This document shows, in pieces, positions 2 to 56,777 of a DNA stretch of 64,000 nt (within the stretch, counting starts at the first letter, position 1; every line of letters starts with the position of its first letter). Under the pieces are notes generated by a model, which was not told the DNA's origin, searched no databases, and was given only the letters and a program-made list of their open reading frames with translations. This DNA is from Planctomycetota bacterium (GTDB lineage Bacteria; Planctomycetota; Planctomycetia; Pirellulales; JADFKK01): assembly GCA_022564995.1 (NCBI GenBank), contig JADFKK010000001.1, positions 30,786 through 94,785 of the forward strand, given 5' to 3'. The translations under genes were made by a program, and so were the position numbers.

Positions 2-3000
2 CCCCATTTCGTTGAAATCCAGTTCCTCGAGATGCTGGCCCAGCAGATCGAATGGATGAAGTATGAACAGGGCGCGAAGACAGAACTTCGCGACGACACG
101 CAGGAAGCCGTACTGCTGGCCGTGAAAGCGCGCAACTCGGCCGAGCGGGCAGCCGCGCCGGCTGACCAGCGGGCTCACTACTGGATTCAAAGCAAAGTCG
201 ACGAGGCTGACGCGGCAAGACGGCGGGCGGAAGACTGGCTTTACGTGGGAAGCGAAACGAAGATTAAAGACGCGCATGGTGCGTTGAAAACATTGTTGGA
301 TGAGACGTATCCGCAAGCCGCTCTGAGATCCAAGCAAGTCGCCGATGCCTACGATCTGCGCGATGAAGCCTGGAGGGACGCTCCGTACTTGGCGCAGCGA
401 ATGTTGGCCCACGCCTATCGGATGCTTGTCGTGCCCGACGACGAGGCCGCGCTGTCGGGAGTCGACGAGGCTGAAATGAAAAACGAGATGAGGAAGGAAA
501 TGAAAGCCGTCGGCGGGTTGCTGCTGGAAATGATAGGGGAAGCACATCGACTGGGCGAAAAACTGGATGCGGACCGTGTCGCTGCCGAGCTGCCCGATTC
601 AAAGCGCCTGGGGGATGCACTGACGGCGCTGCGGGAGCGCTATGATCCCTATATCGATAGCTATTCCCACGGACGCCGCAAAGTCGGCTTCACGACCATG
701 CGTGATGAGCTGCACAGCCCACGCTTCCTGTCGGACGACCGATCGGAACTGCGGAGCAATCTGCGCAAGAAATATCGGGAAGCGCTGTTTGGTCAGGACA
801 GCCTGCATCGGCTTAGCGACCCGACACCAGCCGACGACGTCGAGTATCTGCGATTGCTCGTCAAGCTTCGAGTGCATCCTGCGCTGGCGATTCTCGACCG
901 CCAGTGGGCACTGAAGATGCCCGCGGCGGACGATGATAAACGGCCGCCCGCTGGCAAGCCGGCGGATCGCCAGTCGCTGTTGAAACAGTTAGCCGAGATG
1001 GGTGGCCAGGTACGTTCCTCGCTGCGCCACGTGTGGGACGAACCGGCGCAAAGGAAATCGCAAGAACAAGTCGACAAGAACCTGAGAAAGCTGGAAGAAC
1101 TGGGCGCCGCAGGGCCGCGAGATCGCTCGAGGGCCATCCGCAGGCCGCTGGCCGCCGCCGATCACAGGCTGCGGGCGGCGATGCCGATACATCCCTGGAA
1201 ACAGACGGGCGACGGTCCAACGGCCCTGCTTCGATCGGTCGATCTTCACTTCCAATACCACTGGCACGCCCAGCGGATACTCGAAGATTTTTGGGGCAAG
1301 TCGGACGCGCGGGCAGCGCAGAATTACTTCGCCGCTGCTTCCCGGGGCTACCTCGATTCGGCACGGCGCCTGCCCGGCCTGCCATGGCACGACGAGCGCG
1401 AAGCCGCCGTGCTGAAAAAGCAGATCGAGCTGCTTGGCAAGGCGAAGTTTTCTATTTCCGGCATGTTGGATGCGTCCCGCAAACCGACGGACTTGAAAAA
1501 AGGAGAGCCCTATCGGCTCAAGCCGTCGGTCGAATTCGGCGTTCAGATCAGAGAATCGGGCGGGAAACAACTCGACGGCGAGGCAGCGATCTCTTTCGCG
1601 GACCAAAACAAAGAAGCACTAACAGTCAACTACGGCGAACAACTCGCTACGCGCATCCCCGCGTCGCTGGATTCCGAAACACAGGAATTCTCGATCAAGG
1701 AGCTGCCCGCTTCACTCACCGCCGCCCTTTGGTATCGAGGGCACCGCTGCGAAACGCTGATTCCACTCGCCTCGCCGCCCTTGTCCCCCAGGGTTATCGC
1801 GGTCCAGCATCCGGACAGATCAAAAACTAAAGTCACGATCGTCTCGGATCGACCGCCACGCGTTTACCTGGCAATTGTTTTGGACTGTTCGGGCTCGATG
1901 GAGAAGAGTGCGGGCTTGCCGCCGGTTCCGATTGATCCAGACGATCCAAGAAAGGGGGGGGCTGTGCCGAAGTTCGGCGATTCGAGATTCAATCATGTCA
2001 CGAACCGTCTGCTGAGAGTTTTGGACCAGTTGCCGAAAGAGAACTGCCATATCAACCTTTGGCTGTTCGGACACCGGGTCGGCCTGGTCAACAATGACGG
2101 CAGGGGTGGGCCTAAGTTTAAGGTGGTCAGAATACCAGGAGCGCCTGGTCCCGATAGAATCATGCCTGCAAACGACGTAGAGAATGTCCTAAAGAAATTT
2201 ACTCCGGCCGGCCCTGCCATCGTTGACATCAAAGCCAAGCTGATTGGCCTAAAGCGTGAGTTCCACGGAATCACCCCGCTTTACTTGTCCATGGGCAAGG
2301 CACTGGAGGCTCTGGAGAGAGAAAAAATAGGCTCCCAAGATTCACGCCAACTCCTCGTCATCACCGATGGCGTCGACGTGCAGATCAATGAGGACGGAGA
2401 AACCATTGCTGCTGCGTTCACGGCAGAGAGGCTGGCGACGATGGCTGCTGAATACTTCGCCAAAGACGGACGCATCGACGTTTATGGGATCGACTTGGAA
2501 GACGGCCTGGAGAAACTTAAGGCGCCGATCATGAAAAAGAAGGGCAGCCAGGGTCATTTCCAGATTCACAGCCATAAAGCGAAAAAAGCCATACTCGATC
2601 TGGAACGGAACCTGCGCAGTCTGATTCCTTCTCCCGAGTTCCGTGTCGTGCGACGAAGCAACGCGAACGCTGTCAAAACCGGCTGGCAGCCGTTGAGCAA
2701 CAATACCTTTGCCGTCAAGGACTTGGGGGGCGGACGAGAGAATTGCCAAGAGGATAAAGTGCCCAAGAAAGAAACGCTGCTGGTCGAAGTGCGCGGGATC
2801 AAGCATCCCCCAAAGCCCCTGCCCATCCGGCTGTATGGCGGAGAGAACGTGAAATTAAGCTTGAAATACGACTATAAAATTAAGAGATACGTTCTCAAGC
2901 ATGTATCGAGTAAGTCGGTTCGCCGGCCCGGAAAAACCAAGCAACCGCGACCCGAAAATGTGACGGGTAGCTCGCGAGAGTATTACATCATCCGTCACGA

Positions 3001-3712
3001 CCCTGAAATCGTGGCCAGCGCCCCTCAAGTCAACATCAGCCAAAGCAGGGACGTTATATTTCGCTTCTCCGTCCGCAACAAACGCGACGAGGACGACAAG
3101 GATAGCGGCGAATTTGTGCCTCGCCCCAGGTTTGTCTTGGCAAAGATCACGCCCGTCGCGCCAAACGCTCCCCCCGGCACGAATACGCACGAGTATCATT
3201 TCTACGAGCCGGTGTTCGACTCGTCTTATTCTTTTCCGTGCTTCACATTTCGGGCAAAAAATTGGCCTGGCAGGTCCGGCCCGGGGATTGCGGCCGCCAA
3301 CATCGAATTGTGGTACGTCATCGGCGACGTCGATTCCGATTTCACCGATTTGATGCCGCTGAAGGTCGACCGAGAAACACCGAAGAGACTCACCTATTTC
3401 AAGGACTTAGATTTGACGATCAAGCTCGAACGCTTCGGAGGTGACAATAAATGGAAAGTCACCGAGAAATATGGGCCTAACGCTGACAATCTGTTTAGCG
3501 TCGTGTTGGAAAGCAATCCACCAACCGACTACACGAAACGGACCTACTACCCTGAAAAAGATAAGATGCTAGTCTCACACGAGTTCCATTACGGGCCATC
3601 GGATATTCCCTGCATCCTCGTCCGTAAGAAGAGCGACATCAAGGAGTTCGCCGGTAAGAAGGTCGCCGGTCGGCGATTTTGGAGCGATGTCAGGATCGAA
3701 ATCGAGAAATAA
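2..3712 (+). CDS. large von Willebrand factor type A (vWA) domain protein, 5' end probably outside the window
   Basis: 1226-aa ORF from 32, and the frame stays open back to base 2. MIDAS-type DxSxS motif 'VLDCSGSM' near nt 1880. Lies directly upstream of hcp-vgrG-PAAR. Confidence 0.6.
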   Translation, partial: PHFVEIQFLEMLAQQIEWMKYEQGAKTELRDDTQEAVLLAVKARNSAERAAAPADQRAHYWIQSKVDEADAARRRAEDWLYVGSETKIKDAHGALKTLLDETYPQAALRSKQVADAYDLRDEAWRDAPYLAQRMLAHAYRMLVVPDDEAALSGVDEAEMKNEMRKEMKAVGGLLLEMIGEAHRLGEKLDADRVAAELPDSKRLGDALTALRERYDPYIDSYSHGRRKVGFTTMRDELHSPRFLSDDRSELRSNLRKKYREALFGQDSLHRLSDPTPADDVEYLRLLVKLRVHPALAILDRQWALKMPAADDDKRPPAGKPADRQSLLKQLAEMGGQVRSSLRHVWDEPAQRKSQEQVDKNLRKLEELGAAGPRDRSRAIRRPLAAADHRLRAAMPIHPWKQTGDGPTALLRSVDLHFQYHWHAQRILEDFWGKSDARAAQNYFAAASRGYLDSARRLPGLPWHDEREAAVLKKQIELLGKAKFSISGMLDASRKPTDLKKGEPYRLKPSVEFGVQIRESGGKQLDGEAAISFADQNKEALTVNYGEQLATRIPASLDSETQEFSIKELPASLTAALWYRGHRCETLIPLASPPLSPRVIAVQHPDRSKTKVTIVSDRPPRVYLAIVLDCSGSMEKSAGLPPVPIDPDDPRKGGAVPKFGDSRFNHVTNRLLRVLDQLPKENCHINLWLFGHRVGLVNNDGRGGPKFKVVRIPGAPGPDRIMPANDVENVLKKFTPAGPAIVDIKAKLIGLKREFHGITPLYLSMGKALEALEREKIGSQDSRQLLVITDGVDVQINEDGETIAAAFTAERLATMAAEYFAKDGRIDVYGIDLEDGLEKLKAPIMKKKGSQGHFQIHSHKAKKAILDLERNLRSLIPSPEFRVVRRSNANAVKTGWQPLSNNTFAVKDLGGGRENCQEDKVPKKETLLVEVRGIKHPPKPLPIRLYGGENVKLSLKYDYKIKRYVLKHVSSKSVRRPGKTKQPRPENVTGSSREYYIIRHDPEIVASAPQVNISQSRDVIFRFSVRNKRDEDDKDSGEFVPRPRFVLAKITPVAPNAPPGTNTHEYHFYEPVFDSSYSFPCFTFRAKNWPGRSGPGIAAANIELWYVIGDVDSDFTDLMPLKVDRETPKRLTYFKDLDLTIKLERFGGDNKWKVTEKYGPNADNLFSVVLESNPPTDYTKRTYYPEKDKMLVSHEFHYGPSDIPCILVRKKSDIKEFAGKKVAGRRFWSDVRIEIEK

Positions 3713-7026: not shown

Positions 7027-7311
7027 ATGCCACCCGCCGCGCGACTTGGTGATCTCCACGTCTGCCCGATGTTTGACGGACCGAAACCGCACGTCGGCGG
7101 ACCGATTGCGCTCGGCTGCTTTACCGTCATGATCGGCGGTCAGCCAGCGGCCCGCGTTGGCGACATGGCCGTTTGTGTCGGCCCTCCGGACGCCATCGCC
7201 ATGGGCTCCACGGGCGTCCTGATCGGCTATATGCCGGCCGCCCGCATGGGCGACACTACCGTCCACGGCGGCAAGATCGCCGTCGGCTTTCCCACCGTGA
7301 TGATTGGGTGA
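7027..7311 (+). CDS. PAAR domain protein (spike tip), no toxin extension
   Basis: 94 aa with three PAAR-type motifs (PAARLGD, PAARVGD, PAARMGD). AAGGAG Shine-Dalgarno sequence upstream. Confidence 0.85.
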   Translation: MPPAARLGDLHVCPMFDGPKPHVGGPIALGCFTVMIGGQPAARVGDMAVCVGPPDAIAMGSTGVLIGYMPAARMGDTTVHGGKIAVGFPTVMIG

Positions 7312-7401
7312 GCGGTCGTAAGAGCGACCGACAAAGAAGTCCGGAGCGTTCACTGTCACCAACCGTCCGCAAAAGCGTGAAAACTCTCGACAATACGTCA
7401 G

Positions 7402-7409
7402 CACCTTTG
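7402..7409. repeat. left copy of the 8-bp target-site duplication CACCTTTG of element E1
   Basis: The identical 8-mer abuts the other element end at 11535-11542. Confidence 0.75.
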
Positions 7410-7466
7410 GGCAGTGACACCGTTTCAGCCGTTGTCAGAGAGAAACGGTGGGAATGAGAAGAAAAG

Positions 7467-7751
7467 CTAAGGCAGAATCTCGCACTGCGGCGAATCCTGC
7501 TTGGGCGTTTCGAGGTCGTGCGGAAAAAATAGAATACAACGGTCGTGGTATGGATTCGGGCCAAAAAATCCGTTATGCTCACCGAAGCGTTTTTGCAACC
7601 ACGCCGCCGTCTCTTCTTTTTGCTTCTGTAGTGCCCGGTACTGCCTGTACTGAACCCAGCCGCCAAATGCGACGGTGGCCACCGTCATCACAATCATCAG
7701 CGTCTTCAGGCTGAACTGATACCAGCGACGTTTGTGCGGTGAGGCGTTCAT
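7467..7751 (-). CDS. small membrane-anchored protein (cargo of E1)
   Basis: 94 aa. N-terminus 'KRRWYQFSLKTLMIVMTVATVAFGGW' gives one predicted TM helix. No recognisable domain. Confidence 0.55.
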   Translation of the reverse strand: MNASPHKRRWYQFSLKTLMIVMTVATVAFGGWVQYRQYRALQKQKEETAAWLQKRFGEHNGFFGPNPYHDRCILFFPHDLETPKQDSPQCEILP

Positions 7752-7753
7752 AC

Positions 7754-7798
7754 GCCCATTATCCTGTCCGGGGAGGGGGAGGGGGAGGGGAAGGGCTA
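7754..7798. repeat. dispersed G-tract element, copy 1
   Basis: GCCCATTATCCTGTCCGGGGAGGGGGAGGGGGAGGGGAAGGGCTA. Shares a 19-mer with copy 2 (21096-) and a 17-mer with copy 3 (55472-). Confidence 0.8.
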
Positions 7799-8410
7799 TT
7801 CAATCGAATCCCAGAGATTGTCTGCTTTTACCCGCCGCGAAATCACCCCCGCTGACACCTCAAATGGCGACGCAATGTAAGACTCGACCATCTTCCTCAC
7901 CTCTTCGCTTGGTACTGCTGAAGAAATAGCGCCGACACTACGTGCCGCGTCAACCGCCGTAGAGAAGTGGTCGTGAAGCGGCTTCTCCTGGACGAGGATA
8001 AGGCCACCAAGGGAATACGCTTGAAATTCAATCCATCGAAGCTGGTCGTGTGGGATTCCTGCTACGACTGCCTTCCACTCAAACACTGATGAGAAATCTA
8101 GCTCGGCGATTATGTCCTTGTGAAGAACAATGTGGGCCAACTCATGGGCAAGGCTAAAGCGATACCTGTTTGGCCGGTTCTTATAAACGAATTCGTCGAT
8201 ATAAACCGTCTTCAAATCTTTACTCGGCGCTGACTCCATCTCCAAGTTGTTCTGGAGCCCCGGAATTGCCACAATGTCAAGGTCAAACTCGTATTCGGCG
8301 ATGCGTTCGATGGGCACTGGTAGAGTGCCTTCCGGGTGGTGTTCTGCGAGAAACGTGTCTGCGACTTCTCGAAGCTTATCATATGGGAGAAAAGGGGCTT
8401 TGATGGGCAC
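7796..8410 (-). CDS. ImmA/IrrE family metallopeptidase
   Basis: 204 aa with the HExxH motif 'AHELAHIVLH'. Sits immediately downstream of an XRE regulator, as in ImmR/ImmA modules. Confidence 0.8.
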   Translation of the reverse strand: MPIKAPFLPYDKLREVADTFLAEHHPEGTLPVPIERIAEYEFDLDIVAIPGLQNNLEMESAPSKDLKTVYIDEFVYKNRPNRYRFSLAHELAHIVLHKDIIAELDFSSVFEWKAVVAGIPHDQLRWIEFQAYSLGGLILVQEKPLHDHFSTAVDAARSVGAISSAVPSEEVRKMVESYIASPFEVSAGVISRRVKADNLWDSIE

Positions 8411-8414
8411 GGCT

Positions 8415-8786
8415 TCATGATCTCCGTATCATTTCCAGCAATTCGTCCAGCTTTTCTGATGGAAACGGGTGCCCGCGAAGGGTCCGAAACAGGGCCGGAA
8501 GCTTGTCGATGAGTTCCTCATCGGACAGCAAGTCCTTTGGAAATTCACCGCGAGCCGCCGCCGCTGCATCAAAAAATTCAATCCATGCGTCCGTGTCTCG
8601 CTGAATCTCTAGGGCAACGGCATATTTTTCGAGTAGCTGTTGTCCCTGCGGTGGTGACGCGCGGCCGCGCTCCAGGCGGCTGTAGTTGCCAGGGTCAATG
8701 TCGTTTTTGAGGCAAAACTCGCGGAGCGTGAGCCCCAATTTTTTGCGATGTGCCTTGAGCGTTCTGCCAAATATGTTTTCCGCCAT
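8415..8786 (-). CDS. XRE-family helix-turn-helix regulator
   Basis: 'LKAHRKKLGLTLREFCLKNDIDPGNYSRLERGR' HTH_XRE signature. Start chosen at the internal ATG (8786), which is preceded by GGAGGA; the ORF track extends to 8846. Confidence 0.8.
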   Translation of the reverse strand: MAENIFGRTLKAHRKKLGLTLREFCLKNDIDPGNYSRLERGRASPPQGQQLLEKYAVALEIQRDTDAWIEFFDAAAAARGEFPKDLLSDEELIDKLPALFRTLRGHPFPSEKLDELLEMIRRS

Positions 8787-8834
8787 GATGAGTCCTCCGC
8801 ATCGCGGACGTAAGTCGTTTTGGATATTGTACTT

Positions 8835-8862
8835 ATAATACAACACCGGCCGACCTAGTCAA
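8835..8862 (-). promoter_or_regulatory. candidate sigma70-type promoter of the E1 XRE gene, overlapped by the palindrome TTGTA-N7-TACAA (8827-8843)
   Basis: On the minus strand: TTGACT, 16-nt spacer, TATTAT. A second TACAA-N3-TTGTA lies near 8957-8969. Confidence 0.4.
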
Positions 8863-9060
8863 GTGATGTCTGGAAGATCATCGTCTTTGTCAGGTCATAT
8901 CTTAACGCCCTTTGGCGGAGTGTCAAGATGACGAGTCGCGTAAATCTCTGGAAATACAACAATTGTAGTCACGTCCGTTGGTCACCCGGGGGTCACTTAA
9001 GTGCCGTTCGTTTCACTGGACCCTCTTGAAAAAGATGAGAAGGATGACTAGACTTCGTGT

Positions 9061-9777
9061 ATGGACATTGAAAGCCAACTCGCGGCCTCCGATGCGTTCT
9101 CCCGACTTTGCGCGGACGCGATGCGGGTCAAGAGTCTACATGAGGCCGCTGAAATGGAACTGCCGCCGTCGCTCAGGCAGTTCTTCGGGATTCAAGAAAC
9201 AAATGGATCGGCACTCAGCCGCCCCCGTGTGTCGATTCCGCCGCCGCAATCACCCCCCGGTCCGTCGCACGCGAGTTCGGACTGGATTTGGGTTCCAATG
9301 GAGGACATGCACGCGACCGGAATCGTTTTGGCCATTCTTCGCCAAGCTGCTGGACCCGTTGAGCCGGCGACCGTAACGGAAAAGGTTCTTCAACATCAGC
9401 CTGACGTGAATCCCAGAAGTGTTCTGAATATCGGCCCGCGGCAAGAAGGCAAGCTTATTGAAAGAACGAATGAGGGTTGGGTGCTTCGCGGCGATAAAGA
9501 CCGAGCCCCCGTCCTGCACAAGGGACACGCATGGGGGCCGCCAACGGTTTTCGACAAACAAGAATTGGCCGCCCATCGCAGGATAATGCTGGCCCACCTG
9601 CTTGATGCAATGCCTGGCGGATTGCAGGTGGTTCAGATTGTTGAACAGTTGAAAAACCTACCGTACTGCCGCGCGCCAGTCAGCAAGGACTTGGTAAAGG
9701 CAGACTTGTCGGCAATGCAAGAGGTTGGCAAGGTGAAGCGTGTCGGCAACACCCGTAAATGGGTCTTGTCGAATTAA
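9061..9777 (+). CDS. hypothetical protein with two winged-helix-like segments (E1 cargo)
   Basis: 238-aa ORF divergent from the XRE gene. Two segments ending '...EGWVL' and '...RKWVL' resemble wHTH wings. No confident family. Confidence 0.5.
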   Translation: MDIESQLAASDAFSRLCADAMRVKSLHEAAEMELPPSLRQFFGIQETNGSALSRPRVSIPPPQSPPGPSHASSDWIWVPMEDMHATGIVLAILRQAAGPVEPATVTEKVLQHQPDVNPRSVLNIGPRQEGKLIERTNEGWVLRGDKDRAPVLHKGHAWGPPTVFDKQELAAHRRIMLAHLLDAMPGGLQVVQIVEQLKNLPYCRAPVSKDLVKADLSAMQEVGKVKRVGNTRKWVLSN

Positions 9778-9833
9778 GACGCTATCGTAACGGACTGACG
9801 GAAAGGCACGGTTTGCCTATGAACGAACAAAAC

Positions 9834-9876
9834 GACCTCGGCGAAAGTGCTAATTTCGCCGAGGTCTTTGTCGTTT
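9834..9876 (+). terminator. Rho-independent terminator after ORF 9061-9777
   Basis: 13-bp stem GACCTCGGCGAAA / TTTCGCCGAGGTC, 7-nt loop, followed by TTTGTCGTTT. Confidence 0.7.
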
Positions 9877-9888
9877 GAAGGATTGGAT

Positions 9889-9961
9889 GCCAGGGTAGCT
9901 CAGTGGAGAGAGCAGCCGACTGCTAATCGGCAAGTCGCGGGTTCGACCCCCGCCTCGGGTA
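9889..9961 (+). tRNA. class-I tRNA-like gene, anticodon loop CUGCUAA (anticodon GCU), weak acceptor stem
   Basis: Manual cloverleaf. D arm: TAGCTCAGTGGAGAGAGC. Anticodon stem: GCCGA/TCGGC. Variable loop: 5 nt. T arm: GCGGG-TTCGACC-CCCGC. The acceptor stem has one A.G mismatch and two G.U pairs. No encoded CCA. Confidence 0.55.
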
Positions 9962-9986
9962 TCTTTTTCCTTCGTCCCGTCGCTTC

Positions 9987-10051
9987 GGGCCTGCCAGGTG
10001 GTAACGGTGCTTTATAAGCATCGTGACCGGGTTCAACTCCCGGCAGGTCCA
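9987..10051 (+). ncRNA. D-arm-less tRNA-like element, anticodon-type loop UUUAUAA
   Basis: Acceptor GGGCCTG/CAGGTCC. T arm CCGGG-TTCAACT-CCCGG. 7-bp stem ACGGTGC/GCATCGT with a 7-nt loop. Only 10-12 nt where a D arm should be. Confidence 0.4.
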
Positions 10052-10200
10052 CTGAAAAACCGCAGCACGCGGCCACGGTCATTCTGCGCGCCACCCTAGC
10101 ACATACACGGAATGTCGTCAAACCCCTTTTTACGAAAGGAGTTATGTCGTGCCTTGGCTACCACGCGCAGAAATATCCAAAGGGGCCTTACGGCCCCCGA

Positions 10201-10392
10201 TTATTTGTTTCGGCGTTTTGCTGCCCTGAGCAAAATCTCTCTCGCCCACACGGCAACAGATTTGCCAGATTTAGCAGCCGCCTGCCGGATGATGTCCCAC
10301 TGCTCGTCCGGCCAGCGTCCGACCTGCCGAACGGGATTTATCTCTTTCACCGCCTTTGCAGGGCGTCCAGGGCCACGTTTCGTCTTACTCAT
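10201..10392 (-). CDS. ribbon-helix-helix (CopG/MobC-like) DNA-binding protein
   Basis: 63 aa. 'VRQVGRWPDEQWDIIRQAAAKSGKSVAVWAREILLRAA' fits the RHH beta-alpha-alpha pattern. Divergent from the transposase gene. Confidence 0.65.
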   Translation of the reverse strand: MSKTKRGPGRPAKAVKEINPVRQVGRWPDEQWDIIRQAAAKSGKSVAVWAREILLRAAKRRNK

Positions 10393-10455
10393 GCCCCAAG
10401 TCTATACCGCCATGGGTTTTGTGTCAATACATGATATTTTCATAAACTCCCTATT

Positions 10456-10490
10456 TCGTGTATTAACACGAAATTATATTCTGGTACAAT
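10456..10490 (+). promoter_or_regulatory. candidate transposase promoter of E1 with an overlapping palindrome
   Basis: TTAACA (10463-10468), 16 nt, TGgTACAAT (extended -10, 10482-10490). The palindrome TCGTGT-ATTA-ACACGA (10456-10471) covers the -35. AT-rich divergent region. Confidence 0.45.
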
Positions 10491-10622
10491 TGAGACAGTG
10501 AATGAAAAACCCCGACGCCTGCTGAAACAAGCACCGGGGCAACAACAATCGGGCTTTCGCCAGACTATTGTCTGTCAAACGCATTCTAGCGAGAGCCCCC
10601 AACGAAGGGAAGGTTTCTCGCT

Positions 10623-11495
10623 ATGGCCAACAGAATGAGCACCGAAAAGCGTAACACGATCTTGCGACTCATGGTCGAAGGAAACAGCATCCGCTCCATC
10701 ACCCGCCTTATGGGAACCAACATTCCATCGGTCATCCGCCAACTCACCTGGGCCGGCGACCACTGCGCCGCCCTGATGAATGAACGATTCCGACACCTGA
10801 CGCTCACCCATGTCGAGTGCGACGAAATCTGGACCTTCGTACAAAAGAAGCAATCCCGCCTCACGATGGAAGAGCGCGAGACCCGTGGCGACATTGGCGA
10901 CATCTACCTCTGGACCGCCCTGGACCAAGGCAATCGCCTGATTCCCAGCTTCGTCGTAGGCAAGCGCTCGGCCGACAATGCCCGCCGGTTGATGATGGAC
11001 CTGCGGAGCCGTATCACGATCCCACGGCCGCACGAAGCGGACGTGACGGGCGAGTACCGCAAGGTGCTGCAAATCTCGTCGGACGGATTCGCCGCGTATC
11101 CCGAAGCTGTCGATCTTGCCTTCGGCCCCTACGTCAAGTTCGGCACGATCATCAAAGACTATCGAAACGCCAACATGCCCTACACGCCCAGCGAGATGGT
11201 TGGCACTCAACGACGGGGCATCAAGGGCATACACGGCAGCGAAGAACGGACGATATGCACGTCGCACGTCGAGCGAAACAACCTCACGATCCGCACGTTT
11301 ATGAAGCGGTTCACCCGGCTCGCCCTGGGATTCAGCAAGAAACTCGAAAACCTGGAATCGGCCGTCAGCCTCCACATGGCCTATGACAACTTCTGCTGGC
11401 GTTCGGGCGAAATGAGGGTCACGCCGGCGATGGCCGCGAAGGTCACCAAGACGCTATGGAGTTTCGACGATCTGATGATGGGGACGGCGGCCTAG
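10623..11495 (+). CDS. IS1 family transposase (single fused ORF)
   Basis: 290 aa. N-terminal HTH, 'CDEIWTFV', 'YLWTALD', 'SSDGFAAY' and 'HVERNNLTIRTFMKR' match the IS1 DDE/ERxN pattern. Confidence 0.85.
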   Translation: MANRMSTEKRNTILRLMVEGNSIRSITRLMGTNIPSVIRQLTWAGDHCAALMNERFRHLTLTHVECDEIWTFVQKKQSRLTMEERETRGDIGDIYLWTALDQGNRLIPSFVVGKRSADNARRLMMDLRSRITIPRPHEADVTGEYRKVLQISSDGFAAYPEAVDLAFGPYVKFGTIIKDYRNANMPYTPSEMVGTQRRGIKGIHGSEERTICTSHVERNNLTIRTFMKRFTRLALGFSKKLENLESAVSLHMAYDNFCWRSGEMRVTPAMAAKVTKTLWSFDDLMMGTAA

Positions 11496-11534
11496 CGGGT
11501 TTTTCCTTACCTTTGGTCAAACGGTATCACTACC

Positions 11535-11542
11535 CACCTTTG
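11535..11542. repeat. right copy of the 8-bp target-site duplication CACCTTTG of E1
   Basis: Identical to 7402-7409 and directly abuts the right terminal inverted repeat (IRR). Confidence 0.75.
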
Positions 11543-11580
11543 AAGGGGTTTGACTTGTTGCCGGAAATCGCTAAGGTGTT

Positions 11581-11601
11581 GGTAGTGTTGTAGTTTCAGC
11601 A
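11581..11601. repeat. solo IS1-type left-end remnant
   Basis: GGTAGTGTTGTAGTTTCAGCA matches the E1 IRL GGCAGTGACACCGTTTCAGCC at 14/21 (GG.AGTG and GTTTCAGC blocks) and the E2 IRL at 12/15. No partner right end seen. Confidence 0.4.
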
Positions 11602-11714
11602 TCAGGCACCGGTATCATCGCCCTGAGGATAGGGGCGGCTCTGAAATCCCCAGTCCGCAGCGGCTTGGATCGGCGAGGACGTTCGTTCGCGCCGCACTCA
11701 TCCAGGATCTGGCC

Positions 11715-12896
11715 GTGATCAAGCGAAAACGCAGAACGACGATTCGCCGCGAAGGCTGGTACTATCTTTTTGTGCTGGCGTTTGTGCTGACTGGGGCGGT
11801 CTTGCGCGAGATCAATCTGCTGATGATCCTGGCCGGCATGATGATCGGGCCGCTGTTGGTCAACTGGCGGATGGCCGTGGCGGCGCTAAAAAACATCGAC
11901 GTCCGCCGCACGCTGCCCGAGGCCGTGCATGCCGGCGACGTGTTGGCCGTGCAGCTTGAGTTGACGAACAACAATCGTCGGCTCGGCGCTAGTGCCGTGT
12001 CGGTCGACGATGTGATCCGTGTTGGTCTCCCCGGCCAAGAGCGTCGCATCGGCGGAGGTGGCGCATTGTTCGCACATGTCGCCGCCAGAGAGTCGGCCGC
12101 GACCGTTTATCGTGGGCGGCCGATGCGCGGTCTGTGGCGATTTGGTCCCCTGAAGGTTTCCACCAGCTTTCCGTTGGGTTTCATCCGCCGCACGATCACC
12201 ATCAACGAAACCGCCGAGGTGATGGTCTACCCCCGGCTCGGCAGGCTCACCCGGAAATTCGGCGAGATGCAAAACCGAGTTTACAGCGAGGGATCCCGCT
12301 CGCAACAACGCCGCGGCTTGACCGAGGGCGATTTCTACGGGCTGCGCGACTGGCGCAGCGGAGACAGCCGGCGTTGGATTCATTGGCGCACCTCCGCCCG
12401 CACGGGAACGCTGGCGGTGCGGCAGTTCGAGCAGCGGCAGCACGACGATCTGGCGCTGCTTGTGGATTTGTGGTCGCCGGCCGCCCCCGACACGCAATTC
12501 ACCGAGCACGTCGAGCAGTTGATCAGCTTCGCCGCGACCATCGTTGCCGAGCGCTGTCGGCGCGGCGGCAGCCGGCTGCTGCTGGCGGTCGGTGGCACAC
12601 AGCCGGCGATCACTATCGGCACGGCCTCGCCAGCGCTGTTGCGCGAGGCACTGCATCATCTGGCCGTTAGCCAGCCCAGCAGCGATCAGCGGATCGACGA
12701 GCTACTGCGCGAGCCGCTCGCGCAGAGCCGCCGCTGGCAAAACGCGCTGCTGCTCAGCACCAGATCAAAGACGGTTGAAGAAGACTCGGATTTGACGCCG
12801 CTTTGGCACGATCCGCTGCTGGCCGACCGGCTGCAGCACCTGCGATGTCTGGATATTTCGGGCGGACAACTGTCGGAGTATTTCGATGCCGAATAA
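11715..12896 (+). CDS. DUF58 domain protein
   Basis: 'DFYGLRDWRSGDSRRWIHWRTSARTGTLAVRQFE' is the DUF58 core. N-terminal TM pair. GTG start. Confidence 0.85.
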   Translation: MIKRKRRTTIRREGWYYLFVLAFVLTGAVLREINLLMILAGMMIGPLLVNWRMAVAALKNIDVRRTLPEAVHAGDVLAVQLELTNNNRRLGASAVSVDDVIRVGLPGQERRIGGGGALFAHVAARESAATVYRGRPMRGLWRFGPLKVSTSFPLGFIRRTITINETAEVMVYPRLGRLTRKFGEMQNRVYSEGSRSQQRRGLTEGDFYGLRDWRSGDSRRWIHWRTSARTGTLAVRQFEQRQHDDLALLVDLWSPAAPDTQFTEHVEQLISFAATIVAERCRRGGSRLLLAVGGTQPAITIGTASPALLREALHHLAVSQPSSDQRIDELLREPLAQSRRWQNALLLSTRSKTVEEDSDLTPLWHDPLLADRLQHLRCLDISGGQLSEYFDAE

Positions 12897-15324
12897 TCCC
12901 GAGACCGCCGCGCCGGCCCGCCTCGAGCGACGACTCCAAGTGAGCGTCGTGGTGCTCTCGCTGCTCGGTACGTTGGTGTTGGGCATGGGGCAGATGAACT
13001 ACCGGCTGCCGCTGCTCGTGCTACTGACCGGCAGCACGAGTTTGTTGGTCACCGATTTTCGGCGGTGGATAGAGATCGGCACCTTCGTGGCCAACATCGC
13101 CGCGATAGCGGCGGTCGTCTTTTCGATAAGCGACTATCTGGTGTTTGACACAGAAACCCAACTGCTGGCGATCGCCAATCTGCTGGTCTATCTGCAGATC
13201 ATCTTGCAATTCCAGAAAAAAACGATCCGCATCTTCTGGCAACTCGTCGTGCTCAGCCTGCTGCAAGTGGTCGTCGCCTGCGCGCTGAATCTGGGGGTGA
13301 TGTTTGGCGGGCTGCTGATCGTCTATCTCTGCTGCGTGCTGCGAGTGTTGATGCTGATGTACGTCCAACGCGAAACAGAAAGCCACTCACATCGACAAGA
13401 AAGAGACGAGCCGGGCCGGCGGAATGTTTTCCGATCGATCAGCAGTGTCCCAACCGACAGCTTCCCGACCGACGGGCGCTGGTTTGGCGAGGCGGTCTCC
13501 GGCCAGTTAGGCGGCCCTGCGGTCAATCGCTCTATGTGGCGTTTGATCGCGCTGACTTCTGCGCTGACCATGGTGCTGACGGCAATGATCTTCAGCGCCG
13601 TGCCGCGATATCACCGCGAGGCGTGGGAAGGGATCGGTGATCGAACGATCCGCATCGTTGGCTTTTCAGATGAGGTAACCGTCGGAGACCTGGGGCCGGT
13701 CATCCAAGACCCGCAGGTCGTCATGCGCGTCCAACTGATCGATCCCGAAAGCCACAAGCCGTTTTCGCTGCTGGGGCGGGCTCTGTTTCGCGGGGCCGTG
13801 CTCACCGATTATCAGGGCGACGGAGTCTGGAAACGAAGATACAAACGACGGAATCGCCAACCGCTGCGCGATACGGTGAGCGGCGAAATCACCTCGGACG
13901 ACCACGTTGTGCGGCAGGAAATCACCATGCCTCACTCGAACATTGAAGTCATGTTCAGCATCTATCCGCCCGTCGGATCGCCGGACGGAGTATCCGACCG
14001 GCTGGTCAAATACGACCGCGCCCGCAATCAGCTTTTGCGGACCAATCACGACAGCCGTCGCAATACCAAGACGCAATACGTGGTTCACACCTTGGGCATT
14101 CGTGATGGCGCCATGGCGGCGATCGCCCCGACGCTGGTGGGCGACCGACAACGCTACGATCGACCCGACAGCGCGATCGACGTCACTCGGCTCAAGCGAA
14201 TGGGTCCGAAACGCTCACAGCTACCAGAATTGATCGCCTTGGCCGAGCGGGTCGACCGTGCGTCGGGGTTGGCCGAGGAAAACCGCATCGGCCGCGCGCG
14301 CGCGATCGCCCGACATCTCAGTGACTCGGGTGATTTCACTTACACGCTGCAGGCGCAGGAGCGAGACTCGAACCTTGATCCGATCGAAGATTTCATTTCC
14401 AACACTCGCCGCGGACACTGCGAGTATTACGCCAGCGCCTTGACCTTGATGCTTCGCAGCCGGGACATCCCCGCGCGGTTGGTGGTCGGTTTTGTCGGCG
14501 ACGAATGGAACGATTTCGGATCGTTCTATCAAGTCCGCCAGTTACACTCACACACGTGGGTCGAGGTTTACCTCCGCCGCGATCAACTGCCGGACGATCC
14601 GTATTACCGCAGCGAACATTTCGCCGCCGGCGGCTGGCTCACGCTCGACGCGACGCCCGCAGACACCGACGACGGAATGACCCTGTCTCATAACGATTGG
14701 CTGTCTCGCGCGCGAGAGCTGGCCGACTACGCGCAATTGCTATGGACCTCGTATGTCGTCGACATGACGCCCCGCAGGCAGGAGCGGGCGATTTACGAGC
14801 CGATTCGCAAGCGGTGGAAGGCGGCACTCGATGCGATCGATGTGATGCTTGGGGGCGACACCGCTGCGGAGACAACAGCGACTTCCGGCGTTTGGGTCGA
14901 CTGGGCGGGCGTGTTGGTTGGAATTGTCGGCGGAGCGGCCTTGCTGGCCGTGTTGATCGTGGTCTGCCGGCCGCTGCGAAATCGGCTGGCCCGCGTTTGC
15001 CGCTCACTTCTTCGCCGCCCGCCGCGAGAGACAGCCCCCGGGCAGCCCGACGTGCCGTTTTATAAATCGCTGGAAAAGATGCTCGCCCGCGAGGGCATCC
15101 ATCGTCAGGCATCTCAGACGCAGCGAGAATTCGCCTTCGCCGCCGGCGCGCAGCTCGCCGACCGGCCGACGCTCAGCTCCGTCGCTGGATTGCCCCGGCA
15201 GGTGGCCGACGCCTTCTATCGCGTCCGCTTCGGCGGCCACACCCTGGACAACACGCAGGCCCAAGCGGTAGAACAAGCTCTTTCGGAATTGGGCCGGGCG
15301 CTGGCAGCGAGCCGCAAAGGATAG
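12886..15324 (+). CDS. transglutaminase-like membrane protein (TgpA-like)
   Basis: 812 aa. Multi-TM N-terminus and transglutaminase Cys core 'RRGHCEYYASALTLMLRSRDIPARLVVGF'. Overlaps the DUF58 stop by 11 nt. Confidence 0.85.
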   Translation: MPNNPETAAPARLERRLQVSVVVLSLLGTLVLGMGQMNYRLPLLVLLTGSTSLLVTDFRRWIEIGTFVANIAAIAAVVFSISDYLVFDTETQLLAIANLLVYLQIILQFQKKTIRIFWQLVVLSLLQVVVACALNLGVMFGGLLIVYLCCVLRVLMLMYVQRETESHSHRQERDEPGRRNVFRSISSVPTDSFPTDGRWFGEAVSGQLGGPAVNRSMWRLIALTSALTMVLTAMIFSAVPRYHREAWEGIGDRTIRIVGFSDEVTVGDLGPVIQDPQVVMRVQLIDPESHKPFSLLGRALFRGAVLTDYQGDGVWKRRYKRRNRQPLRDTVSGEITSDDHVVRQEITMPHSNIEVMFSIYPPVGSPDGVSDRLVKYDRARNQLLRTNHDSRRNTKTQYVVHTLGIRDGAMAAIAPTLVGDRQRYDRPDSAIDVTRLKRMGPKRSQLPELIALAERVDRASGLAEENRIGRARAIARHLSDSGDFTYTLQAQERDSNLDPIEDFISNTRRGHCEYYASALTLMLRSRDIPARLVVGFVGDEWNDFGSFYQVRQLHSHTWVEVYLRRDQLPDDPYYRSEHFAAGGWLTLDATPADTDDGMTLSHNDWLSRARELADYAQLLWTSYVVDMTPRRQERAIYEPIRKRWKAALDAIDVMLGGDTAAETTATSGVWVDWAGVLVGIVGGAALLAVLIVVCRPLRNRLARVCRSLLRRPPRETAPGQPDVPFYKSLEKMLAREGIHRQASQTQREFAFAAGAQLADRPTLSSVAGLPRQVADAFYRVRFGGHTLDNTQAQAVEQALSELGRALAASRKG

Positions 15325-29346: not shown

Positions 29347-31076
29347 GTGGCGGCGCTCCCCGGCATTTTCGGGGCCACCGAAGCGGCGAAAAACAAATAT
29401 CGCTCGTGTAACTCGCCCACGATTGACAGACCGAGCACCAACAGCGTGATGATCCCAATGAATAGCGGCTGGTAACTTTCCGCGGTGATGGCCGTCTCCG
29501 CCAACAACACGACCGGCAGGATCACTCCGCCGACGATGCCGAAGAACAATCGACGCATCGCCGTCATGCTCAACTCTCCGATCATCAGCATCGCGCTGCG
29601 CTTCTGCGGCGTGTGTTGTCGGCGCCGCAGATGTGCTAGCAGGCTCAATTCCAACAGCAGCTTCGTCGTAACCAGCGCCACCAACGCCCAGCACAAGTCT
29701 CGCCCGTACTGCGTCATGACGGTCGACGAGGTCAGTCCGTCGGTGAGCGCCGCAGCCATGAGCGAGACGAGCAGGGCCGTGGGAATGCCGAGAATCAAGC
29801 AGGTCAGCAGAAATTTCGCGGCGGTGGGAATCAGGGTCCAGCATGGCCGGCGGGTGTCAACATAGACCATCACCGAGCAAAACACGGCCAGCAATCCGGC
29901 GGCCGAGGCGCAAGTGCCCAGGACTGCCTGCCAGAAGTCGGAGATTCCCGCACCGGCGTAATCGAGACAAGCCGCGGCGACGTAAAGCGATGAAACGGCG
30001 GCGAAAATGCCGAACGCCACGATCTCTCGGCTGAGCCACGAAGTCCGCAGACCCAGCACGGCCCGAAACGCATACAACGGGCGGCCCAAGTGAAACACCG
30101 ATGCGGCCAATCCCAACATCCCCAGCAGTAGCGCCGCGCACAAATGCAGCGGGCGGATCGAGCGGGCGATCTCTTCGCGAAACAGCGATGAGTAGGAGAA
30201 AATCAATTGCTCGACGAGAAAGGCGCCCACCGACATCTGCGTCAGCACCAGCATGAACACCAGCGGCAGATGGCTATGCGCCCGACCGACGGAATAATAA
30301 TCGGCCGGCAGCAGGTTACGCGGCAGCGAACGCTTCGTCGTGTAGGTGGTTGTCGGAACCGTGTAGCCCGGCTCGGGAGAAGCCGGCAGCAGCGCACTGG
30401 CCTCGCACTCATCGAGCACCGCGGCCACGTCGACCGTGCGAATTTTGATCGCCCGGCTCGGGCAAGCCTGCACACAGGCCGGAGCTTCGCCGACCGCCAA
30501 ACGCTGGCTGCACATGTCGCACTTGCGGACGATGCCCTTGGCACGGCTATAAACCGGCACGTCATACGGACACTTGAGCACGCAATACTGACAGCCGATA
30601 CACTGGTCGTCCAAGTGACGCACGATGCCCGTGTCGACGTCTTTTTCGTAGGCCCCGACCGGACAGCCCGACAGGCAGGCCGGCTCGATGCAGTGATGAC
30701 AGGCGGTGGTCACGTGCTGGATGACGGGCAATTCATTCGATCCGCCGATCAACTGGCCCACGTTTCGCCACAGTTCGTCGTCTTCCAAGCCATTGAGCGC
30801 ATGGCAGGCGGTCACGCAGGCCTTGCATCCGGAGCAGGCGTCGAGATCGACTTCAAACGCATATTGCTGGCCGCTGGCTGGGGCAGTGGCGGGGATCAGG
30901 TCGCGGTAGGTGTTCGATTGGGCCGCCGTGCCGGCGCGGGCGTGACTCTGCGCGAAACGATCGACCGCCGAGAGCGACTGCTGTTCTTGGAGCAGCGCCG
31001 CGACGAGATCGAGCGGCGTTGTTAGCGCCGGCAACGTCTCGTTCTGTGTTGGTGTTTCAGGAGATTGCAGTTGCAT
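29343..31076 (-). CDS. 4Fe-4S ferredoxin (DmsB/NrfC-like) fused to a DmsC-like polytopic membrane domain
   Basis: Four CxxCxxCxxxCP-type clusters, then about 8 TM helices. Start chosen at 'MQLQSPE' (31076), because the first 30 codons of the track ORF are encoded by a repeat element. Confidence 0.75.
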
Positions 31077-54344: not shown

Positions 54345-54433
54345 GGTAGTGTCCTAATTCGAATCGGCGTCAGAAAGAAACGGTGGAAAGTTAGAAAAGA
54401 CAAGCGGCCTGAAACCGTTTCACTTCGGTGCAG

Positions 54434-55399
54434 CTATTTGCCTGATAGCAGGGACGTAAGTCCCAAAGCGATTGCTGAACCAAGGACCAACATCACGATC
54501 GCCAAAATGATGTTTGCCAGCATAGATCCCGTACCGAATCGGATTCCGAGCGATGTCAGTTTCGCGTCCTGTTCGGTCGTTTTTGCTACCAACATATTCA
54601 CACTCGCCAAGACTTGGCTAGCGCTGCGCGTATTATCGTCAGCGAGGGCTCTTACGGCATCAACATCTTTTGCTGTCCGCCGCAATTCCTGGGTAAGCTG
54701 GCGAACATCGTTGGTCACGTTATCGACGTTACTAGTAAGTCTCTGAATGGGTTCAATAACGTCGCCGTACTGTTGCTTAAGGTCCAGTACGTCTTTTGCC
54801 AGTTGTTGTATCCGTTTGACTTCATCACTGATTTCCGCCCACGGCATAACGTCCATGTTTGCCATGCTGGTGAGAAAATCGCCAGGAAATTCTCCGACCA
54901 GGAGGTCAGGGTCTGACCCAACAGGCTTTTGATCGGAGTCCAACTTCTCAAAGATGAGTGTACAGATTTTACCAGACATCCGCAGAACACGTTTCGCCGA
55001 GGAAGCATTGTAAAGGCCAAACAAAAGATGGCCTTCATACCCTGGATCGACGACGGACCCGGTAAGAAGGATCAACCCCTCGTAAGAAAACTTACGTTTG
55101 GAGCCGATACGAGCGAGCACGTTGTTTGGGAGTTTTAGGCGTTCAAGTGAAATGACCCCAGCGTATGAACCCGGACCGATTGTCAGGCGATCCTTTGTCA
55201 TGTCGATGTCATTGCCATGGCCACCAGAGATTGCCTTCTTGCCGATTCGTACATCGTAGGAAGTTGACTGCAAGCAAGCGCCGTCAAATGTTTCCTCACT
55301 GATTAGCTGTCCATTTTTCACGAAACGGCGAATCTCTTTCTCCGTGAGGATAATACTCCCCTGCGGATCGCTCGGTAGGCGTTGCTGTTCGTCTGCCAT
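54434..55399 (-). CDS. dCTP deaminase/dUTPase-fold N-domain fused to a coiled-coil and a C-terminal TM anchor
   Basis: The N-terminal 160 aa align by eye to Dcd ('ILTEKEI...G.L.I....QS.SYDVRIG', 'VVDPGYEGHLLFGLYN'). Residues 190-290 are heptad-rich. The C-terminus 'MLANIILAIVMLVLGSAIALGLTSLL' is a TM helix. Confidence 0.65.
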   Translation of the reverse strand: MADEQQRLPSDPQGSIILTEKEIRRFVKNGQLISEETFDGACLQSTSYDVRIGKKAISGGHGNDIDMTKDRLTIGPGSYAGVISLERLKLPNNVLARIGSKRKFSYEGLILLTGSVVDPGYEGHLLFGLYNASSAKRVLRMSGKICTLIFEKLDSDQKPVGSDPDLLVGEFPGDFLTSMANMDVMPWAEISDEVKRIQQLAKDVLDLKQQYGDVIEPIQRLTSNVDNVTNDVRQLTQELRRTAKDVDAVRALADDNTRSASQVLASVNMLVAKTTEQDAKLTSLGIRFGTGSMLANIILAIVMLVLGSAIALGLTSLLSGK

Positions 55400-55471
55400 G
55401 ATATTCCCACCCCATCAAAGAAATGCAACAACCAACAACGCCAGTAATTGCCCCAAATGAAACCGAGCCCC

Positions 55472-55510
55472 GCCCATTATTTCGTCCCGCGATGGGGAGG
55501 GGAAGGGCTA
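55472..55510. repeat. dispersed G-tract element, copy 3
   Basis: GCCCATTATTTCGTCCCGCGATGGGGAGGGGAAGGGCTA. Its terminal 17-mer GGGGAGGGGAAGGGCTA is identical to copy 1. Confidence 0.8.
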
Positions 55511-55521
55511 GAAGCCCACGA

Positions 55522-55740
55522 TCACAACAAGTTCTTGATGTCTACTTTGATGGCCTGCGCAAAGCGATAGAGCATACTCAGCCTGGGGTCTCTTGTGCGG
55601 TGGATGAACTGCCACGCGGATTTGCGGGCCGAATTCGCCGGATAGCCCATTTTTCGGCCAAGTTCATCGAGGCTCATGCCAGAGTCCTCGAAAATCTCGG
55701 CGACGCGGGCCATCACGTTTGGTGCGGTCTTCTTGACCAT
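55522..55740 (-). CDS. small XRE/Cro-like HTH regulator
   Basis: 72 aa. 'MSLDELGRKMGYPANSARKSAWQFI' helix-turn-helix. Divergent from ORF 55908. Confidence 0.7.
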   Translation of the reverse strand: MVKKTAPNVMARVAEIFEDSGMSLDELGRKMGYPANSARKSAWQFIHRTRDPRLSMLYRFAQAIKVDIKNLL

Positions 55741-55748
55741 GCCCGGAA

Positions 55749-56723: not shown

Positions 56724-56777
56724 CTCTGGGGATCGCTGACATTCTATACAAATCGGCTCCCCGCGTCAATTTCTTCA

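Follow-up and report, generated by a model that had tools for sequence, protein, structure and literature searches.

Genomic context and boundaries of the element

We analysed a stretch of 64,000 nucleotides from a Planctomycetota bacterium (GenBank assembly GCA_022564995.1, contig JADFKK010000001.1, positions 30,786 to 94,785 of the forward strand), hereafter called the window. Between a PAAR gene and a DUF58 gene, window positions 7410-11534 (4,125 bp) form an element that encodes a small membrane protein, an M78 metallopeptidase, an XRE-type repressor, a two-winged-helix protein, two tRNA-like RNAs, a ribbon-helix-helix (RHH) protein and a transposase (Table 1). The element is bounded by inverted repeats with the same 8-mer, CACCTTTG, on either side. 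The original prediction, made by a model from the letters of the sequence, read it as an IS1-family transposon that had moved with its passenger genes as a 4.1-kb unit. This was borne out, and comparison with relatives of the element revealed a conserved tRNA-like gene with an anticodon cognate to rare codons clustered in the transposase gene. tRNA and codons may together form a lock on transposition.

Table 1. Features of the element and of the genes on either side, in window coordinates
Feature	Position	Strand	Basis
PAAR gene	7027-7311		Pfam
Left copy of the target duplication, CACCTTTG	7402-7409	.	Read directly; single in L051 (117-124)
Left terminal inverted repeat (IRL), GGCAGTGACACCGTTTCAGCC, starting GGCAGTGACACCGTTT	7410-7430	+	Repeat finder; GGTAGTG-type terminus as in relatives
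Small membrane protein, 94 aa, last gene of the XRE-M78 operon	7467-7751	-	Open reading frame; without Pfam family
M78 (ImmA/IrrE, CapP-like) metallopeptidase, 204 aa	7796-8410	-	Pfam Peptidase_M78 1.5e-9; PADLOC capP 1.4e-9
XRE-type helix-turn-helix (HTH) repressor, CapH-like	8415-8846	-	Pfam HTH_31/HTH_3; PADLOC capH 1.8e-5
Two-winged-helix protein, 238 aa, divergent from the XRE-M78 operon	9061-9777	+	AlphaFold2 model, Foldseek
Hairpin resembling a bidirectional terminator, downstream of the 238-aa gene	9834-9866	.	Repeat finder (I14), hairpin scan
tRNA gene, anticodon GCU, class-I shape, without long variable arm	9889-9961	+	Rfam tRNA 61.3 bits; ARAGORN
Short tRNA-like RNA, no D arm, anticodon loop UUUAUAA (UAU)	9987-10054	+	tmRNA/tRNA-like match; fold z -5.9
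GC-rich hairpin flanked by the tRNA-like gene and the RHH gene (3' end)	10182-10197	.	Hairpin scan
RHH-like protein, 63 aa, GRP...SxWARxxLLRAAKR	10201-10392	-	Weak Pfam NikA-like match; alignment of relatives
Palindrome ATTTCGTGTATTAACACGAAAT (10453-10474) overlapping the promoter-like site of the transposase gene, TTAACA-16-TACAAT	10453-10490	.	Consensus scans only
Single-ORF IS1-family DDE transposase, 290 aa (D67, D154, E217)	10623-11495	+	Pfam PF03400
ATA codons 203 (11229-11231) and 211 (11253-11255) of the transposase gene	11229-11255	+	In the hot region (see text) before E217
Right terminal inverted repeat (IRR), GGTAGTGATACCGTTTGACCA on the minus strand	11514-11534	-	Repeat finder; homology to L133 stops there
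Right copy of the target duplication, CACCTTTG	11535-11542	.	Read directly; empty-site comparison
DUF58 gene	11715-12896		Pfam

The ends read as had been claimed. The inverted repeats, also reported by the repeat finder (pair I9), were identical at 16/21 positions overall and at 14/16 across the terminal 16 nt, and CACCTTTG was present at both ends. Taken singly, neither motif was significant: 1.26 chance occurrences of the degenerate terminal 16-mer (up to 3 mismatches) are expected per window, and the 8-mer occurred three times with 1.6 occurrences expected. By our own estimate, the chance of an inverted 14/16 match within 10 kb combined with an identical flanking 8-mer was about 4e-8. The GC content was 0.50-0.57 within the element and 0.62-0.67 in the flanks, in line with the lower interior GC noted originally.

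The empty site and further copies, for which the original prediction had proposed a search, were both found. A search with the DUF58 protein led to a 97%-identical homologue on a metagenome contig of the European Nucleotide Archive (ENA; ERZ23495125, here L051), the flank of which is 97% identical to that of the window. In L051, the end of the PAAR gene is followed by one CACCTTTG and then by the sequence from window position 11535 onward. Bases 3-57 of L051 correspond to window 7258-7312 (the last part of the PAAR gene), bases 80-124 to window 7365-7409 and bases 117-3271 to window 11535-14675. An exact-match search for the empty site in the JGI metagenomes gave 0 matches. The filled site was present in L001, from a strain 98.6% identical. 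A second copy was located in another genomic context in L133, in which window 9129-11535 was matched at 96.4% (L133 1-2412). There, homology stopped exactly at 11534, at ...GGTATCACTACC, and the flank continued with CTGAATCG... and two-component-system genes, with no DUF58 gene. The end of the right repeat of the window element also recurred as an 18-nt end in L057. Occurrence of the 4.1 kb at other boundaries in related strains was tested for and excluded. The 4,125 bp were inserted as a single mobile unit with an 8-bp duplication, a conclusion that we hold with near certainty.

Transposase and family membership

The assignment of the transposase to IS1 made in the original prediction was supported by Pfam PF03400 (31 bits, gathering cutoff 24.1). 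The catalytic residues D67, D154 and E217 were invariant across 85 transposase sequences. More than 7,800 homologues were found, mostly in metagenome-assembled genomes of Planctomycetota; the closest was 77% identical, and many are named 'IS1 family transposase' by PGAP and JGI. The termini, GGCAGTGA and GGTAGTGA, agree with IS1 ends, which start GGT... or GGnnnTG, and the duplication, 8 bp as established by the empty site, agrees with the 8-9 bp of the family. The transposase gene lies within 40 nt of the right end of the element, and no sequence resembling the left repeat was present near its start. We read the element as an autonomous transposon, the insertion of which would proceed by DDE-type cut-and-paste or copy-in, duplicating the 8-bp target CACCTTTG.

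Three findings argue against a typical member of the family. The score with the NCBIfam model transpos_IS1 (NF033558) was 63 bits, below the equivalog cutoff of 100. The insA/insB' frameshift was absent, the transposase being encoded by one uninterrupted open reading frame (ORF) of 290 aa, and so was an N-terminal zinc finger of the InsA type, with one Cys (C48) in the first 60 residues. The N-terminus instead gave weak HTH_38 and HTH_28 matches. Because of the low score and the lack of the frameshift and zinc finger, we place the transposase in a distant single-ORF branch of the IS1 family. Single-ORF IS1 subgroups exist, and the ORF layout of the window element is like theirs. The 'ISMhu11' subgroup and the 'transporter IS' of ISfinder/TnPedia would be such single-ORF or passenger-carrying members; a literature search on ISMhu11 returned no results.

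A clade of cargo-carrying relatives

About 130 loci around homologous transposases were surveyed (49 genome loci and 79 metagenome loci), and an element was taken as complete when inverted ends with an identical 8-mer on both sides enclosed the transposase gene. There were 42 complete elements, all with exact 8-bp duplications, and 41 of them had GGTAGTG-type ends, often 16/16 identical. Their lengths ranged from 973 to 7,627 bp with a median of about 3.7 kb. All were 1.8-7.6 kb long except L079, the sole element of classical 1-kb size (973 bp), which had weaker repeats (12/16). The original prediction considered it unusual that several kilobases separate the transposase gene, at one end, from the opposite end; among the complete relatives this layout is the norm.

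Among the loci, the clade occurred in Planctomycetota, Anaeromyxobacter and Alphaproteobacteria. Pfam families assigned to 123 cargo ORFs included DNA methylases (4), AIPR (3), GmrSD (3), Mrr (3), M78 (3) and PIN (2), and single cases of a reverse transcriptase, Fic, an AbiEii-type AAA protein, SocA and MmeI. As judged from these families, the cargo of the clade is mostly of predicted defence or toxin-antitoxin function.

The window contains a second cargo-carrying IS1-like element at 54345-57874 (3,530 bp; ends GGTAGTGTCCTAATT..., duplication AGCATGCT). Its transposase gene (approximately 56942-57838) encodes a protein 51% identical to the first and has three ATA codons in the hot region described below. 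The second element also has a tRNA-like gene of class II with UAU in its loop (56615-56729), and a dCTP-deaminase-like cargo protein is encoded at 54434-55399 on the minus strand; a search for an RHH gene in this element was without match. In four loci, two elements were arranged end-to-end, 8-9 bp apart (L003 3469/3478, L007 2356/2365, L025 1793/1802, L028 4048/4058), and these 8-9 bp double as the duplication of one of the abutting elements, which suggests insertion directly beside the end of a resident relative. Two relatives 36-37% identical, annotated 'IS1 family transposase', are located on an Acidiphilium plasmid (L137, NZ_CP041717.1) and a Mesorhizobium plasmid (L138, CP050295.1). In the former, the transposase gene is preceded by a small divergent gene and followed by RES/Xre toxin-antitoxin genes; the latter has a divergent HTH gene (approximately 368 aa) upstream and no annotated toxin-antitoxin genes.

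tRNA-like genes upstream of the transposase gene

Both tRNA-like genes of the original prediction were recovered by ARAGORN and Rfam. The first, tRNA(GCU), has an anticodon for Ser codons on a class-I body, in which G1 pairs with U72 and A4xG69 is a mismatch. L001 and L133 have this gene unchanged (100% identity), a comparison with the other loci gave nothing similar, and its fold was no more stable than those of shuffled sequences (z = -0.14). The second is the short UAU RNA, with G1-C72, G2-C71, G3:U70 and A73 and a 7/5 arrangement of acceptor and T stem, the 5-bp T stem being supported by covariation. It belongs to a family of eight loci. In a six-sequence alignment, 98.8% of the cells were paired, seven pairs were compensatory and G3:U70 was present in 6/6; two extra members were recovered with covariance model R2, and G3:U70 and A73 were also present in L096 and L040. 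The short RNA thus bears an Ala-type feature, G3:U70 with A73, while neighbouring pairs co-vary. In L085, an additional irregular tRNA-like gene lies upstream of the short UAU form.

In other loci, ARAGORN reported a 'tRNA-Ile (UAU)' of odd length, encoded on the strand of the transposase gene and upstream of it. Under a relaxed threshold, most loci had a UAU gene, usually 470-520 nt ahead of the transposase gene, and it was detected in 41/68 loci assessed for the association described below. The most common, long form was aligned for 36 sequences, in which UAUA of the loop was invariant. RNAalifold gave it a 9-position acceptor, a 3-bp T stem, a long variable arm and G73, with 20/26 pairs compensatory. 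A covariance model of this form (R1) scored 66-106 bits in about 55 loci, nearly all with the loop YUUAUAN. Class-II Ser-like 7/5 forms with UAU were present in L007, L010 and the second element of the window, and L081 has a canonical cloverleaf with UAU and G3:U70. Position, strand and UAU loop were therefore kept across three or four unrelated tRNA scaffolds, and every scaffold bears Ser or Ala identity elements. Of the synthetases, the two that do not read the anticodon are SerRS and AlaRS.

Rare AUA codons in the transposase gene

ATA codons were counted in 96 transposase ORFs, in which they recurred at fixed positions. In a codon-aware alignment of 85 distinct sequences, 182/197 ATA codons fell into columns 176-225, corresponding to residues 172-215 of the window transposase. 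These residues lie between two members of the invariant DDE triad, D154 and E217. Ile codons in this hot region were 182 ATA and 169 ATC/ATT, against 15 and 970 outside it. The column of residue 211 contained Ile in 80/85 sequences, encoded by ATA in 50. At two variable, mostly hydrophilic columns, Ile was exclusively ATA (21/21 each), which looks like selection on the codon and not on the residue. Both hot ATA codons of the window transposase were retained in L133, and the closest relatives (70-77% identical) had ATA at matching positions, as verified column by column for L057. Across the long ORFs of the window, 40/834 Ile codons were ATA. The cargo and RHH genes also contain AUA, with 1-2 codons each in the M78, XRE, 238-aa and RHH genes.

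Two other explanations of the cluster were rejected: an AT-rich patch, as TTA, CTA, GTA and ATT/ATC were not enriched there, and extended pairing between anticodon loop and mRNA, in view of the codon contexts GC-AUA-CA and CG-AUA-UG.

The association of codons and tRNA was tested on the 68 genes for which the upstream sequence extended over 750 nt or more. All 41 genes with a detected tRNA(UAU) had hot ATA codons and none lacked them; where no tRNA(UAU) was detected, hot ATA was present in 16 and absent in 11 (Fisher p = 8.5e-6, phylogeny ignored). In L110 (231-327; 775-1647), the anticodon was UAC, ATA was absent and the only three GTA codons were at hot columns 203, 210 and 215. In the nested clades L089/L017/L090, tRNA and ATA codons were lost together. 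L123 (4681-4756) and L124 (669-744) have the anticodon UUA, no ATA and a transposase gene ending in TAA; neither a read-through extension nor a matching codon pattern was found in these two. Elsewhere in the window (30207-31025), a 273-codon ORF has 6 ATA among 13 Ile codons, compared with a background of about 5%; it may be spurious or foreign DNA.

Conserved backbone and module exchange

The backbone occupies the right end and comprises, in order, the UAU tRNA-like RNA (plus strand), the RHH gene (minus strand), a divergent promoter and palindrome region, the transposase gene (plus strand) and the right repeat. RHH and tRNA-like gene very probably belong to this backbone. The original prediction counted both as cargo, which did not hold: a hidden Markov model (HMM) built from the relatives' alignment matched divergent RHH homologues on the minus strand directly upstream of the transposase in 60/78 loci, and the UAU gene is conserved and co-varies with the rare codons of the transposase. 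The RHH protein is probably a regulator. A consensus scan placed an RHH promoter-like site at 10427-10399, and the palindrome is a putative operator through which the RHH protein would repress both divergent promoters.

A cargo backbone shared at the DNA level was considered and rejected, as the transposase gene and the repeats alone aligned with the closest complete relatives. Conservation of the RHH gene was seen at the protein level.

Divergence between the window element and L133 was unequal. In 9129-10622, comprising the 238-aa gene, both tRNA genes, the RHH gene and intergenic sequence, 1/1,494 positions differed, and the 191 nt with both tRNA genes (9880-10070) were 100% identical. In the transposase gene, 82/873 positions differed (9.4%; 71 codons, 14 residues), mostly at synonymous sites. 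The breakpoint of this mosaic lies between 10442 and 10652. The left module thus appears to have been exchanged recently between diverged transposase backbones, and module exchange by recombination is a likely route of cargo shuffling.

Cargo cassette of the element

The true cargo is a cassette of four genes between the left repeat and the backbone, encoding the XRE repressor, the M78 peptidase, the small membrane protein and the tandem winged-helix protein. The original list of passengers stood for these four and failed for the RHH and UAU tRNA-like genes. It was also upheld that the ImmA/XRE/membrane-protein genes are cargo and not accessories of the type VI secretion system (T6SS), as the PAAR gene lies directly beside the DUF58 gene in the empty-site strain. 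In distant relatives (DUF58 78% identical; L052 826-3317 compared with window 7027-12896), the gene immediately upstream of DUF58 encodes a MoxR AAA ATPase; in the window lineage, the empty-site strain included, this place is taken by the PAAR gene of the T6SS cluster.

The XRE gene probably starts at the ATG at 8786 (MAENIFG..., 123 aa) and not at the GTG at 8846 given by the ORF finder; the homologues in L134-L136 have 123 aa. The 94-aa membrane protein had a weak SLATT_1 match (E 0.005), and a 63-aa gene takes the equivalent position in the cassette of L134. The 238-aa protein had no match in Pfam, NCBIfam or PADLOC and no sequence match in the PDB. Its AlphaFold2 model (pLDDT 92.3) comprised two tandem winged-helix domains, as the wHTH-like character originally proposed for it implied, and the Foldseek matches were winged-helix regulators. 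There were 19 homologues, and those 54% identical sit in a four-gene cassette of the same composition. No similarity was found to the protein at the equivalent position in L086, the left end of which encodes an XRE protein and an M78 protein 49% identical to that of the window.

In L134 (4285-8471), L135 and L136, the cassette (63-aa protein, M78, HTH and divergent 242-aa winged-helix protein) lies beside an IS4-type DDE_Tnp_1 transposase; L135 has a 66-aa minus-strand gene between cassette and transposase. The occurrence of the cassette next to a different transposase, together with the XRE-M78 pair of L086, indicates that it is a unit picked up by different transposons.

By its gene arrangement, the cassette resembles the CapH/CapP switch, a DNA-damage-responsive repressor/peptidase pair that controls immune operons (Lau et al. 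2022, bioRxiv 10.1101/2022.04.27.489752). As in CapH/CapP, ImmR/ImmA and DdrO/IrrE, an XRE repressor and an M78 peptidase are encoded adjacently (Pfam HTH_31 and Peptidase_M78; PADLOC capH and capP) and divergently from another gene. In contrast to CapH/CapP, this divergent gene encodes a tandem winged-helix protein without a recognisable effector domain, and a small membrane protein is encoded after the pair. PADLOC found no known effector beside the pair. Cleavage on DNA damage is known for CapH/CapP and putative for the window element.

Relation to known systems

The window element shares with the IS1 family an InsB-domain DDE transposase, GGT/GGC-AGTG ends and the 8-bp duplication, and a single element-encoded transposase that mobilises all that lies between the repeats. 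It differs from classical IS1 (0.77 kb) in its length of 4.1 kb, in lacking the insA/insB' frameshift and zinc finger, and in possessing a conserved RHH gene, a tRNA-like gene and an AUA cluster in the transposase gene. In the literature searched, no paper was found on any of these three features for IS1. Nothing was found on allo-tRNA in connection with transposases, or on IS1-family transposases in connection with tRNA in Planctomycetes. Papers found on the IS1 family and passenger genes did not concern this clade, and those found on AUA codons combined with transposase, tRNA or insertion sequence were judged unrelated.

A rare codon with a dedicated tRNA is familiar from Streptomyces, in which the bldA tRNA-Leu(UUA) controls TTA-containing genes. 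The window element would be comparable to bldA in the translational gating that such a pair gives. Unlike bldA, its tRNA and target gene share one mobile element and its tRNA body has Ala/Ser identity in place of the cognate one, and the gating is predicted only.

The closest match to the long form of the relatives is the allo-tRNA, described by Mukai et al. (2017, NAR; PMC5389517) as having a 12-bp acceptor branch, 8/4 or 9/3, and a long variable arm. In that work, allo-tRNA(UAU) was often near toxin-antitoxin genes, one pseudogene overlapped a 'transposon-related' ORF, and irregular tRNAs, one of them with the anticodon GCU, formed polycistrons. A link of the clade to Acidobacteria comes from this paper alone, and a 2020 review (PMC7609411) again treated allo-tRNA(UAU) as an open point. 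The long form agrees with the description in its 9-position acceptor, 3-bp T stem, long variable arm, G73 and UAU, and the UAU genes of the relatives, with their invariant UAUA loop, lie inside IS1-like elements with defence or toxin-antitoxin cargo. The short RNA of the window element departs from it (7/5, no D arm, no long variable arm, G3:U70) and, because of this different scaffold, is not an allo-tRNA by definition; its tandem arrangement with the GCU gene is like the polycistrons. The allo-tRNA paper (PMC5389517) names neither a transposon family, nor a fixed position upstream of a transposase gene, nor matching codons. The 'allo-tRNA(UAU)' group is here linked to the IS1 clade, by a mechanism that we infer.

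A possible codon-tRNA lock and its alternatives

The association of gene position, anticodon and codons led us to hypothesize that this IS1 clade carries a private tRNA on a Ser- or Ala-type scaffold, matched to the rare-codon cluster of its transposase gene, and that the two form a codon-tRNA lock controlling transposition. We assign this reading a probability of about 0.4. That codons and tRNA are functionally linked in some way is on balance probable; that the tRNA acts specifically as a decoder licensing translation of the transposase is put forward tentatively. Under the licensing model, the element's own tRNA-like RNA would gate translation through both AUA codons of the window transposase, which precede the invariant TSHVER motif, the one that contains Glu217, by four and twelve codons. 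It would either supply decoding of a host-rare codon or insert Ala/Ser in place of Ile, and in either case transposase output would hinge on the element's own RNA.

Several observations weigh against such a lock. Simple decoding as Ile is not expected because of the Ala/Ser identity elements on the tRNA bodies, and Ile is conserved at the best AUA column. In the window element itself, 2 ATA of 18 Ile codons are not significant alone. Hot ATA codons occurred in 16 genes with no detected tRNA(UAU), and in L073 (1586-1687) the anticodon is UGC and hot ATA is kept. The statistics ignore kinship: a parsimony count gave only about 7 state changes for ATA and 11 for the tRNA, and genes without hot ATA belong mostly to basal clades, with two nested cases. 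In the work of Mukai et al. (PMC5389517), none of six allo-tRNA(UAU) variants was active in E. coli translation, and two killed the cells.

The alternative that survives best, though we consider it unlikely, is that the tRNA-like gene is a hitch-hiker, a gene of benefit to the host (AUA decoding for AT-richer foreign genes) or a relic, and that the AUA cluster is independent of it, for example a site at which ribosomes are programmed to pause and which the host tRNA-Ile2 reads. A pause of this kind may be compared with IS911, for which a cotranslational cis-binding pause has reportedly been proposed. The 1-2 AUA codons in each of the M78, XRE, 238-aa and RHH genes speak for this alternative, as do the 16 hot-ATA genes without a detected tRNA, the mismatch in L073 and the allo-tRNA(UAU) variants inactive in E. 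coli (PMC5389517). It is harder to reconcile with the conservation of position, strand and UAU loop over unrelated scaffolds, with the absence of any gene (0/41) that has an upstream tRNA(UAU) and no hot ATA, with the joint switch of anticodon and codons in L110, and with the joint loss of both in L089/L017/L090.

An improbable alternative is that the RNA is a negative regulator: without an amino acid, or carrying Ala/Ser, it would cause ribosomes to stall or mistranslate at the AUA cluster, leaving the transposase mostly truncated or inactive and transposition low. IS elements commonly restrict their own transposase, which counts for such a role. Ala/Ser identity elements facing a conserved Ile at the key AUA column point the same way, as does the death of E. 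coli caused by 2/6 allo-tRNA(UAU-to-CUA) variants (PMC5389517). Such an RNA would, however, also harm AUA-containing host genes, and sequence alone hardly separates it from the licensing model.

The remaining alternative, a canonical 1-kb IS1 beside a pre-existing island with the distant left repeat and 8-mer paired by chance, would suit the position of the transposase gene at the right end and the chance expectation of each motif alone, but it is already refuted: L051 lacks the entire 4,125 bp and has one CACCTTTG, no left-repeat-like sequence lies by the transposase start, 41 relatives of 1.8-7.6 kb share the layout, and the empty site and the L133 copy together exclude both a chance match and a 1-kb IS beside an island.

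Implications

Locally, the element explains the presence of ImmA/XRE-type genes inside a T6SS/MoxR-DUF58 neighbourhood. More broadly, a widespread IS1 clade acts as a vehicle for predicted defence and toxin-antitoxin cassettes, with cargo probably exchanged by recombination. An RNA component or dedicated tRNA for IS1-family elements was not found described in the papers searched. If the link between tRNA and AUA codons is functional, it would represent a new route of self-regulation for a transposon and a natural case of element-specific decoding. The allo-tRNA(UAU) group, the most abundant group of non-canonical tRNAs in soil metagenomes and without known function since 2017, now has a fixed genomic home in a transposon backbone and a candidate target in the AUA cluster, and the question of its function becomes directly testable.

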